Below, in pieces: positions 31,456 through 34,022 of a stretch of DNA of 51,554 bases. The DNA is taken from the IMG/VR virus record IMGVR_UViG_2531839664_000034. The stretch is one strand, 5' to 3'. This DNA is from a virus (taxonomy: Duplodnaviria; Heunggongvirae; Uroviricota; Caudoviricetes). The notes below the pieces were generated by a model. The model searched no databases and was not told the origin of the DNA. It worked only from the letters and a program-made list of their open reading frames with translations. A program made the position numbers and the translations under genes. The first letter of the stretch is position 1; every line of letters starts with the position of its first letter.

Positions 31456-32352
31456 ATGACGATTGCGAAGGATAGTTCGACTGATGAAATCATTCATGGA
31501 AATGATCTCCGTGGAATGGATGATTTTTACATTAAGACAACGAGTTTTGAATGCCCATATGAGCCTTGTAAAATTAAAGCCACACCTTGTAGTTTTACTA
31601 TGAGACATGTTAATCAATCATATTTTAGATATGGTGATAAACATAAGGATGGATGTGGTATTCATGATCCAAGATATAAAAACAATCATACTTCAAATGA
31701 CGAAAGAAAACATAATTCGCCACCTGCTCCGGTTATATCACTTTTAAAAATTGATGTGAAGCCAAGAGGTGGTGTTAAAAATGCCAGAAGTAGTAAAAAT
31801 GAAAATCACAAGGATGAAAAAAAAGCTAATGAACATCCTGTATCTTCATCAAGTATTAAGCCAGTCGTTGACTATTACATAAATAATAGCAATCATAATG
31901 AACAGCTATCAATCCCTCCATATGGCACGCGATCTTATAAAGATACGTTTCAACTTATTTTTTACAAAAACAACATACGTTATTACAAACCTGCAATTTA
32001 TTATGGTGTAGTCCAGTCTAATATTCGTCTGCATGAAGATTCAGATAAACATTGTATAACTTTCCTCGCAAGGGATAAGAAGACCCAAAAACCATTTACG
32101 CTTGAAATTGATGTTTCTGACTGGAATAAAAGTCAGAAGGATGTGTTTTGGAAAGAATATGAAAAGCAAAGGAAGGAAGCTGATAGGTATTATAAGGGAC
32201 TTAAAGATAAAAGGAATGCTAAAAAATACCTGACGGTTTTCTTTTTTGGGATGCCGGATGAAAATAATAAGTTTCTATTTAAGACAAACCACTTTAAATT
32301 AGTATATGTGGCTTTCTTGGGTAAATTTGAAAGCTCATATAATGATAGTAAT
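31456..32352 (+). pseudogene. Hypothetical Cys-cluster protein with (Glu-Pro)n linker, 5-prime part, interrupted by IS629
   Basis: ORF 31456..32355 takes its stop codon TGA from the first three bases of the IS629 inverted repeat (32353-32355). Confidence 0.6.
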
Positions 32353-32406
32353 TGAACCGCCCCGGAAATCCTGGAGACTAAACTCCCTGAGAAAGAGGTA
32401 AACAGG

Positions 32407-32733
32407 ATGACTAAAAATACTCGTTTTTCCCCCGAAGTCCGTCAGCGGGCGATTCGTATGGTTCTGGAAAGTCAGGATGAATATGACTCACAGTGGGCGG
32501 CAATTTGTTCCATTGCCCCAAAGATTGGCTGTACGCCGGAGACTCTGCGTGTCTGGGTTCGCCAGCATGAGCGGGATACCGGGGGCGGTGATGGTGGGCT
32601 CACCAGCGCTGAACGTCAGCGTCTGAAAGAGCTGGAACGTGAAAATCGTGAACTGCGCCGCAGTAACGATATCCTTCGCCAGGCTTCCGCTTATTTTGCG
32701 AAGGCGGAGTTCGACCGCCTCTGGAAAAAATGA
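32407..32733 (+). CDS. IS629-like OrfA
   Basis: 108 aa [22 protein letters not shown]... with leucine-zipper C-terminus. Confidence 0.85.
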
Positions 32734-33620
32734 TGCCACTGCTGGATAAGCTGCGTGAGCAGTACGGGGTCGGACCGGTATGCAGCGAACTGCATATTGC
32801 CCCGTCAACGTATTACCATTGTCAGCAACAGCGACATCATCCGGATAAACGCAGTGCCCGTGCGCAGCACGATGACTGGCTGAAGAGAGAGATACAGCGC
32901 GTATACGATGAAAATCACCAGGTATACGGTGTGCGTAAAGTCTGGCGTCAGTTGTTACGGGAAGGTATCAGAGTGGCCAGATGCACTGTGGCACGTCTCA
33001 TGGCAGTTATGGGACTTACCGGTGTTCTCCGGGGTAAAAAGGTCCGCACTACCGTCAGCCGGAAAGCCGTTGCCGCAGGCGACCGCGTAAACCGTCAGTT
33101 CGTGGCAGAACGTCCAGACCAGTTGTGGGTGGCTGATTTTACCTGGGTAAGCACATGGCAGGGCTTCGTTTATGTGGCGTTCATCATTGATGTGTTCGCC
33201 GGATACATCGTGGGATGGCGGGTCTCATCATCCATGGAAACGGCATTCGTGCTGGATGCACTGGAGCAGGCGTTGTGGGCCCGTCGGCCGTCCGGCACAA
33301 TCCACCACAGTGATAAAGGTTCTCAGTATGTATCGCTGGCCTACACGCAGCGGCTTAAGGAAGCCGGCTTACTGGCATCAACAGGGAGTACTGGTGACTC
33401 GTATGACAACGCGATGGCGGAGAGCATCAATGGCCTTTACAAAGCGGAGGTAATACACCGTAAGCGCTGGAAAAACCGTGCAGAAGTGGAACTGGCCACA
33501 CTAACGTGGGTGGACTGGTATAACAATCGACGATTGCTGGGAAGGCTGGGCCATACTCCTCCGGCAGAAGCAGAAAAAGCTTATTATGCTTCCATCGGAA
33601 ACAATGATCTGGCAGCCTGA
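32730..33620 (+). CDS. IS629-like OrfB transposase (DDE)
   Basis: 296 aa; DDE region (LWVADFTWV...HHSDKGSQY...[15 protein letters not shown]). Confidence 0.85.
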
Positions 33621-33662
33621 GTTCACAGATAAAACACTCTCCAGGAAACCCGGGGCGGTTCA

Positions 33663-34022
33663 AATTATTACATTGAAAATGATCTGTCTGTATCATCATC
33701 ATTGAATGAACAACCCATTTCATTATCTGATATAGACCATAAAAATCATGAATATAATATTGAAACTTCATTAGATTTTAGTTCTCCTTTGCCAGAGCCA
33801 GAGCCAGAGCCAGAGCCAGAGCCAGAGCCAGAGCCAGAGCCAGAGCCAGAGCCAGAGCCAGAGCCAGAGCCAGAGCCAGAGCCAGAGCCAGAGCCAGAGC
33901 CAGAGCCAGAGCCAGAGCCAGAGCCAATAAAATCCTCTTTAAAGGAAATTACTGAGACTGTAGAAATGAAGAGTAAAGTTTGGGGGAGGCTGAAAAAGAT
34001 AATCACTTTCTTTAAAAAGTGA
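33663..34022 (+). pseudogene. 3-prime part of the interrupted (Glu-Pro)n protein gene
   Basis: After removal of IS629 and one AAT copy the frame runs ...[26 protein letters not shown]...(PE)n...FFKK*, matching ORF 33702..34022. Confidence 0.6.
33791..33926 (+). repeat. Hexanucleotide microsatellite (GCCAGA) x about 22.7, encoding (Pro-Glu)n
   Basis: Directly visible perfect tandem repeat of 136 bp; in-frame within the 3-prime gene fragment. Confidence 0.95.

Follow-up and report, generated by a model that had tools for sequence, protein, structure and literature searches.

We describe here a gene in a 51,554-nucleotide stretch of DNA from a Caudoviricetes virus record (IMG/VR IMGVR_UViG_2531839664_000034), referred to below as the window. 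Two open reading frames (ORFs) at 31456-34022, which lie on either side of a copy of the insertion sequence IS629, are a single gene that has been broken by a strain-specific IS629 insertion. Sequence comparison places the 417-amino-acid (aa) product as a divergent, full-length member of the PD-lambda-4_B/Avs8B family. The gene is the first cargo of recombinase-trio elements, probably of SE/GInt type, where it is accompanied by a 137-aa partner gene, and the microsatellite within it is the variable-number tandem repeat (VNTR) locus TR2/Vhec1/O157-10. With respect to the searchable literature, three points appear to be new: the link between this VNTR and a protein family, the long-form architecture of the protein, and the convergent in-frame microsatellites in its spacer. 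The parts of the interrupted gene are as follows.

31456..32352, plus strand: 5' part of the gene, codons 1-299, containing the whole globular region (ORF list, AlphaFold2, dN/dS)
32350..32352: left-hand AAT of the target-site duplication, which doubles as codon 299 (Asn)
32353..33662, plus strand: IS629 copy 1, 1310 bp, with orfA at 32407-32733 and orfB at 32730-33620
33663..33665: right-hand AAT of the target-site duplication
33666..34022, plus strand: 3' part of the gene, codons 300-417 and the stop codon, encoding the acidic spacer and tail; identical to intact alleles

The inserted element carries the terminal inverted repeats TGAACCGCCCCGG, and RefSeq labels identical elements as 'IS3-like element IS1203 family'. 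A first-pass annotation of the window, made from its sequence, had proposed that an AAT-flanked IS629 splits this gene and that its removal would fuse the two ORFs in frame into a protein of about 417 aa. Both proposals proved correct. Joining 31456-32352 to 33666-34022 gives 1254 nucleotides that encode, in frame, 417 aa and a stop codon; the stop of the 5' ORF in the window is a TGA contributed by the left end of IS629 (32353-32355), and the TTG start at 33702 in the ORF list is mechanical only. The same annotation had called for an uninterrupted allele to be sought in other genomes, and among 5426 complete E. coli genomes we found one in 314, including O157:H7, O55:H7, O121, O155 and others. 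The allele of strain 2014C-3655 is 100% identical to the predicted fusion except in repeat number. The IS629 junction of the window was found in none of these 5426 genomes, the junction query matching IS copies only and never at full length, which indicates that the insertion is recent and strain-specific.

The insertion point, after codon 299, is the end of the modelled domain, that is, the boundary between domain and spacer. IS629 thus cuts the spacer, the VNTR and the tail off from the 5' ORF, so that describing the gene as split by IS629 is right as to the insertion but overstates the damage, the entire globular domain remaining in one ORF. As the 5' ORF retains its own upstream region, a tail-less 299-aa product resembling the natural short form (such as Avs8B) may still be made, and the interrupted allele would then not be null. 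Promoter-like sites 5' of the gene were no commoner than in shuffled sequence. Beyond the stop codon, a hairpin at 34042-34066 with a 9-bp stem (-17.2 kcal/mol, z -3.2) is probably the terminator of the gene. The 5' part of the gene has a GC content of 32.8%, against 66.9% for the repeat and 45.6% over the window as a whole, in agreement with the earlier description of the gene as AT-rich outside the repeat.

A second IS629 copy, 100% identical to the first, lies on the minus strand at 34425-35734 and is therefore inverted relative to copy 1. It is inserted in the beginning of another IS3-family element, one that had already truncated a BamE-like gene, and it is also carried by O121 RM8352. 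Recombination between the two IS629 copies could invert the 762-bp segment that holds the VNTR.

The first-pass annotation had left the protein unassigned, a description that can now be replaced. The window protein matches the PADLOC model PD-Lambda-4_B over residues 133-284 (E 1.5e-8), and the same model is matched by 133 of 139 aligned full-length relatives, at best with E 4.7e-189. A word-indexed search returned only 18 close clusters, from Enterobacterales and Moritella, many of which end at contig ends inside the repeat; an exhaustive profile search returned 207 family representatives at 50% clustering, and a search for related loci based on the close-subfamily alignment yielded only 8. 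When the close subfamily was aligned by hhalign with the remainder of the family, the probability was 100% (E 9e-51) over 289 of 299 columns. The window protein is about 20-25% identical to typical (short) family members, and its non-repeat part had no match in Pfam, NCBIfam or PHROGs. The gene is under purifying selection, with a ratio of nonsynonymous to synonymous substitution rates (dN/dS) of 0.11-0.23 against orthologues (299 codons, six genera).

PD-lambda-4 has been renamed Avs8. In its anti-phage operon in E. coli ECOR07, Avs8B is the second gene and reportedly comes after that of Avs8A, a STAND NTPase which senses the phage major capsid protein; Avs8B is dispensable for defence against lambda. 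With Avs8B the window protein shares homology across the globular region, the CCHC residues, a predicted OB-like core and a location in horizontally acquired AT-rich DNA. It differs in length: the PADLOC model has 303 positions, most members are of about 300 aa and Avs8B is presumably short, whereas the intact window protein does not end right after the last beta-strand at about 300 aa but is at least 417 aa long, adding 118 aa of spacer and tail. It also differs in its surroundings, as it has no adjacent NTPase and is paired with the 137-aa gene on a recombinase-trio element. The operon partners expected from Avs8, the Avs8A STAND NTPase/Mrr nuclease, were sought without success, no STAND or NTPase match being present within about 5 kb by PADLOC or Pfam; annotated intact loci have recombinases, two small hypothetical genes and a BamE-like gene. 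Avs8B, until now an orphan accessory of a well-studied anti-phage sensor, belongs to a family of more than 200 clusters. This placement, the acidic spacer and amphipathic tail in a third of the family, and the paralogues next to Qat and on recombinase-trio elements allow testable hypotheses of nucleic-acid binding and tethering to be formulated. These concern the following regions of the window protein.

31456..31680, plus strand: N-terminal CCHC zinc-finger sub-domain, residues 1-75; conserved ligands, residues 1-70 modelled at a predicted local distance difference test (pLDDT) score of 88-95
31933..32340, plus strand: OB-like beta-barrel with a long inserted helix, residues ~160-295
33969..34019, plus strand: C-terminal basic amphipathic helix, K401-K417, proposed as a membrane-targeting or docking peptide

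Structure prediction, one of the checks suggested earlier, gave a confident model. AlphaFold2 applied to residues 1-299 with 139 family sequences reached a pLDDT of 87.5 and a predicted template modelling score (pTM) of 0.85, and this model replaced an earlier one built from 16 sequences (pLDDT 63.8). In it the zinc-finger sub-domain packs against the OB-like barrel, whose order is strand-strand-strand-long helix-strand-strand; an OB fold is a barrel of five strands in which a helix separates strands 3 and 4. The N-terminal Cys cluster noted in the first reading is real and comprises C33, C38, C45 and C67. The proposed zinc ligands are C33 (31552-31554), C38, H63 and C67 (31654-31656); all 139 family members have C33 and C67, and at least 90% have C38 and H63, the pattern C-x(2-4)-C ... 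H-x3-C being kept in the family. From this conservation we infer that the CCHC cluster binds zinc. Two relatives weakly match Pfam CoiA_N, the N-terminal zinc finger of CoiA (7e-5). A PDB sequence search with the family profile yielded one chance match only (E 0.03), and a Foldseek search against viral predicted structures returned nothing at E <= 0.001.

The globular part is basic, with an isoelectric point (pI) of 9.3 and a net charge of +13; over the family, pI has a median of 8.9 and exceeds 8 in 85% of members. It is a reasonable inference that this part binds nucleic acid. Neither a signal peptide nor a membrane-spanning segment was found in the window protein, in which the maximum 19-residue hydropathy is 0.78, and the 417-aa protein is accordingly predicted to be cytoplasmic.

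Two classes of protein can be distinguished in the family. Members of the first are about 300 aa long and end after the last strand, whereas those of the second, the long form, are 345-553 aa long and continue into a low-complexity linker and a basic amphipathic end. The long form accounts for 52 of the 139 representatives, so that about a third of the family has the acidic spacer and amphipathic tail. Tails in this class include RSWIRRLFW, IFSKILNFFRK, LVRRLWRWLFKR and MRKIISWLRKFIRK. We compared the hydrophobic moment of the best 11-residue window in the last 25 residues with that of internal control windows. Over the 52 long forms the median maximum was 0.725, against 0.456 in the controls, and 56% of the tails lay above the control 95th percentile. 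The mean charge is +4.1 for the last 20 residues and -4.8 for the linkers. In the window protein these features are pronounced: spacer residues 300-385 have a net charge of -29, and the tail K401-K417, which the first-pass annotation had described as short and basic, has a charge of +6. In most long-form relatives the linker is non-repetitive and 30-230 residues long.

The charge and hydrophobic moment of the C-terminal helix suggest that it may tether the protein to the inner membrane face or to a partner. Comparable arrangements occur in SSB (an OB fold, a linker and an acidic tip), in FtsZ (a linker and a C-terminal peptide) and in MinD and FtsA (C-terminal membrane-targeting helices). The resemblance, which we regard as an analogy only, lies in an OB-like domain, a biased linker of variable length and a short conserved end peptide, and, by its charge and hydrophobic moment, the tail of the window protein may be likened to the amphipathic helices with which MinD and FtsA are targeted to the membrane. 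None of these proteins shares sequence homology with the window protein; here the tip is basic rather than acidic as in SSB, and the linker is acidic and, uniquely, encoded by hypermutable microsatellites.

Together, these observations suggest an explanation that we favour, with somewhat better than even confidence when taken as a whole: the window protein is a long form of the Avs8B family in which a nucleic-acid-binding head would be joined by a length-tolerant acidic tether to a docking helix, and which would serve as a conflict accessory. The basic globular head would bind nucleic acid, and the C-terminal helix would hold it at the inner membrane face or at a partner. The spacer would need only acidity and flexibility, from which it follows that its length would be weakly constrained, and the gain or loss of repeats would in the main be mutational noise that is tolerated, not a property that is tuned. 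The protein as a whole would act as an accessory or sensor in conflict with phages or mobile DNA.

The Glu-Pro spacer of the window protein is encoded by a repeat that has served as a typing marker.

33791..33926, plus strand: (GCCAGA)22.7 microsatellite encoding (EP)23, identified by Tandem Repeats Finder (TRF); multiple-locus VNTR analysis (MLVA) locus TR2/Vhec1/O157-10
32171..32188, plus strand: site of TR2 primer GGAAGGAAGCTGATAGGT, exact match, within the 5' ORF and upstream of IS629
34045..34062, minus strand: site of TR2 primer CGCAGTTGATACCTACGG, with 1 mismatch in the window and 0 in O157 SS52

TRF reported the array at period 6 and 22.7 copies with 100% matches (score 272), so that the perfect GCCAGA repeat described in the first-pass annotation is confirmed, with 23 Glu-Pro dipeptides in the 417-aa protein; no other tandem array in the window exceeded a score of 80, which was the next best. 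The locus TR2 of Noller has the repeat TGGCTC, the reverse-complement phase of GCCAGA, and is amplified with the primers GGAAGGAAGCTGATAGGT and CGCAGTTGATACCTACGG (PMC2246123, Table 2). The repeat unit and both primer sites agree, and the window locus is TR2, which is the same as Vhec1 and O157-10 (names from Noller 2003, Lindstedt 2003 and Keys 2005; PMC3768571). The reverse primer anneals on the hairpin that follows the stop codon, and the single O121-type mismatch falls in that primer site.

Of the O157 VNTRs, TR2 is the most polymorphic (Simpson index 92%) and the fastest to mutate. During serial passage it gave 72% of all VNTR mutations, at a rate of 1.3-4.8e-4 per generation per strain, and it was removed from the PulseNet protocol as too variable (PMC3777172). 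The words protein, ORF and coding region never occur in the text of that study, and literature searches for the locus by name as a 'hypothetical protein' or 'open reading frame' returned nothing relevant. In the literature searched, the locus is treated as a DNA marker only; the window copy differs further in its O121-type background and in having IS629 between the primers. Because of this insertion, the TR2 assay would give a product of 1892 bp from the window in place of one of about 580 bp, and it would probably be scored as a null allele. Thousands of MLVA profiles give the copy number of this locus without mention of a gene product. The VNTR is now tied to a gene and a protein family, and an IS629 between the primers would plausibly account for null or oversize alleles.

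Direct reading of four alleles gave 22.7, 29.7, 32.7 and 40.7 copies; the 22.7-, 32.7- and 40.7-copy arrays are 100% pure by TRF, and the 29.7-copy value was derived from the gene length and translated protein. In a sample of 32 genomes, the EP-encoding gene has 20 distinct lengths, corresponding to 8.7-40.7 copies and all divisible by 3. The proposal that slippage would vary linker length while preserving the frame is therefore right, but it had already been established at the DNA level, and the comparison of copy number across isolates that was suggested with it was carried out 20 years ago. We also considered an on/off phase-variable contingency locus and rejected it, since the units are of 6 and 9 bp, lie inside the ORF, and leave 32 of 32 EP alleles and 31 of 34 AEV alleles (see below) in frame.

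The same spacer has acquired different microsatellites in different bacteria. GCCAGA arrays encode (EP)5 to (EP)41 at the same spacer position in E. coli, Enterobacter, Pantoea sp. and Xenorhabdus; GCCTGA encodes (EP)9 in Erwinia, and GCAAGA encodes (EQ)27 in Pantoea dispersa. In a 60%-identical paralogue from E. coli and E. albertii, the unit TTGCTGAGG encodes (AEV)31. This array is also a VNTR, with 29 gene lengths in 34 genomes, corresponding to 5.8-50.8 copies. Pantoea ananatis and Yersinia have LPEPEP only, and other representatives stop at contig breaks within EP or QP runs. Over all units, copy number ranges from about 3 to 51. Across the EP, EQ and AEV units Glu is retained and Pro is replaceable, and the data are compatible with a length-tolerant spacer that needs acidity and flexibility. 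In-frame microsatellites have arisen repeatedly in this one spacer, which makes it a clean natural experiment on the importance of linker length; if that length does matter, the spacer would be a case of unusual, graded contingency variation in a conflict-related gene.

The latter possibility corresponds to an explanation in which the spacer is an adaptive 'rheostat', its hypermutable repeats being selected since a change in tether length, or in how many periodic glutamates it has, would retune how far a defence-associated DNA-binding protein reaches, its auto-inhibition or its partner binding, giving clonal populations functional diversity that is heritable and reversible. Pure, long arrays of unrelated units (6 bp and 9 bp) have arisen at one position in separate lineages, Glu is the sole residue kept among EP, EQ and AEV, the mutation rate is very high, and the opposite charges of head (+13) and spacer (-29) are those expected of a DNA-mimicking auto-inhibitor. 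Against this, copy number is continuous, with no preferred length, most long-form relatives do without repeats in their linkers, and units divisible by three survive in any length-tolerant coding spacer. We consider adaptive retuning unlikely. A fuller version, in which a polyanionic (possibly DNA-mimicking) tether between a zinc-finger/OB head and a docking helix is retuned by slippage, with EP, EQ and AEV as convergent solutions, seems to us slightly less likely again. If true, clonal populations would show graded, reversible variation in the sensing or reach of an anti-phage or anti-mobile-DNA system, and the repeat would be a contingency locus that alters dose or geometry rather than switching on and off.

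The genomic context of the family bears on the conflict role assigned to the protein in the explanation that we favour. In all four loci examined, the AEV paralogue has the orientation of QatA (a KAP NTPase), which it precedes by 131 bp, and is next to a SLATT module; these loci have no recombinases. Their gene order is the AEV paralogue, the anti-phage operon QatABCD and then a SLATT and nucleotide-binding pair (L002, 9975-16012; L024-L026). The paralogue may be an unrecognised fifth gene or a regulator of this Qat variant. One distant relative adjoins a BrxR/SNF2/DUF1156 island, and the contexts of three distant relatives had no common neighbour; one contig held the family gene alone, and another, of 2.4 kb, had only short unannotated neighbours. 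In the window, PADLOC and Pfam gave no NTPase or defence-type match immediately beside the gene.

The window gene is instead embedded in a recombinase-trio element, whose accessory genes include the following.

30137..30532, plus strand: 131-aa Srap/GinD-like fourth gene, 51% identical to the 139-aa post-trio gene in Pantoea
30647..31060, plus strand: 137-aa partner gene, adjoining the gene in 9 examined loci and in the window
34100..34303, minus strand: 3' remnant of a BamE-domain lipoprotein gene, a frequent downstream neighbour of the gene in intact elements

In intact loci the gene comes after those for a pair of tyrosine recombinases, a third, large protein and a fourth protein of 131-139 aa. 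The module in the window has two Phage_integrase matches, a third gene split by IS600 and the 131-aa fourth gene. The first-pass annotation had assigned the gene to the cargo of a recombinase-trio element, and the trio neighbours in both the window and the intact loci bear this out. The architecture is that of the recombination module of SE, strand-biased circularizing integrative elements (PMC10214605), and of GInt islands (PMC5385486), in which two tyrosine recombinases, a large protein with a recombinase fold and a small fourth one stand at one end and are followed by cargo. The window differs from these in its IS600-split third gene. The 137-aa partner is found on either side of the gene (nine loci: L004, L010, L011, L016-L019, L021 and O121 RM8352 L003) and had no Pfam or PADLOC match.

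Between O121-type and O157-type elements (window 24318-31060 against L004 547-5605) the cargo, consisting of the 137-aa gene and the Avs8B-like gene, is 90-98% identical, whereas the recombinase modules have 31-47% identity. Near-identical cargo behind recombinases that are only 38% identical points to cassette exchange. A 100-aa BamE-like lipoprotein encoded downstream of the gene is 100% identical in E. coli O157, Enterobacter, Pantoea and Xenorhabdus bovienii (L004 7435-7737, L010 9714-10016, L016, L017), and the X. bovienii Avs8B-like gene beside it is only 83% identical. This mismatch looks like a mosaic produced by very recent exchange.

These arrangements raise the possibility that the SE/GInt element itself uses the protein as an accessory, for instance in the handling or establishment of nicked circles, which SE elements are known to form (PMC10214605), and does not just carry it as a cargo or defence gene. 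The Srap-like gene lies directly before the gene in Pantoea, Enterobacter and Erwinia, with the 137-aa gene intervening in E. coli, Xenorhabdus littoralis and other Enterobacter and Pantoea strains, and this arrangement holds over two recombinase lineages only 38-47% identical; the modelled zinc finger and OB-like fold would also suit DNA handling. However, four genes suffice for attL x attR recombination and a cargo-free SE exists (PMC10214605), the family occurs without recombinases in the AEV paralogue, in Xenorhabdus bovienii and in all distant relatives sampled, and cargo that is 98% identical behind recombinases that are 38% identical behaves as a swapped cassette rather than as a co-evolving core gene. 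We therefore view a role in the element's own mobility as doubtful, and retain the reading of an Avs8B-family long form with a length-tolerant tether.

The Glu-Pro repeat had also invited comparison with the EP/KP spacer of TonB, and it might be supposed that a rigid EP rod spans the envelope or that the protein forms a procyclin-like surface coat, its length determining reach or antigenicity. The dipeptide composition would agree with either, as would a match of the repeat to the trypanosome procyclin family (Pfam Trypan_PARP, PF05887; E 5.7e-13). That match, however, is compositional, covering the repeat only and scoring 49.4 bits against a gathering threshold of 100, and we rejected it. The likeness to TonB is a Glu-Pro run between two functional parts. 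TonB spans the periplasm and has an N-terminal membrane-spanning anchor, a KP block and a TonB C-terminal domain; the window protein has none of these by Pfam and hydropathy, nor a signal peptide or any hydrophobic segment. The replacement of EP by EQ or AEV in orthologues, with Pro lost and Glu retained, argues further against a TonB-like rigid rod. The TonB analogy thus extends to composition only, and a TonB-like or surface protein is very improbable. The weakest alternative, a decaying ORF with a chance microsatellite in AT-rich junk, could be suggested by the heavy degradation of the window element (IS600 in the third recombinase gene, two IS629 copies, a truncated BamE-like gene), but it is scarcely credible in view of the purifying selection seen over 299 codons in six genera, the annotation of the gene as an intact ORF in the listed E. 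coli genomes, the conserved zinc ligands of 207 family representatives and the confident predicted fold.

The element in the window is decayed, with IS600 in its third gene and a truncated BamE-like gene. The third recombinase-fold gene (26950-30102) is present as ORFs of 307 and 336 aa, with the IS600 transposase at about 27898-28716 on the minus strand. Both halves align to a single 612-aa protein of Pantoea, and O121 RM8352 has the gene in the same state. As this gene is broken, the element is probably immobile in this lineage. A DUF6387 protein precedes the recombinases, a match confirmed on the window ORF, and RM8352 has in addition a helix-turn-helix regulator. The window ORFs at 19080-22469 and 22886-23749 correspond, by position relative to the annotated RM8352 locus, to the YpjA/EhaD autotransporter gene; in RM8352 that gene has a frameshift and is broken off immediately ahead of the element, and a 108-aa beta-barrel ORF stands apart from it.

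On the other side of the gene, at 36530-40018, the window encodes a 552-aa DEAD/DEAH helicase, a toprim protein and a 286-aa protein beside prophage genes. The helicase has PADLOC matches to the helicase regions of type IV restriction, PbeA and DpdF, and this group may be a replication or defence module.

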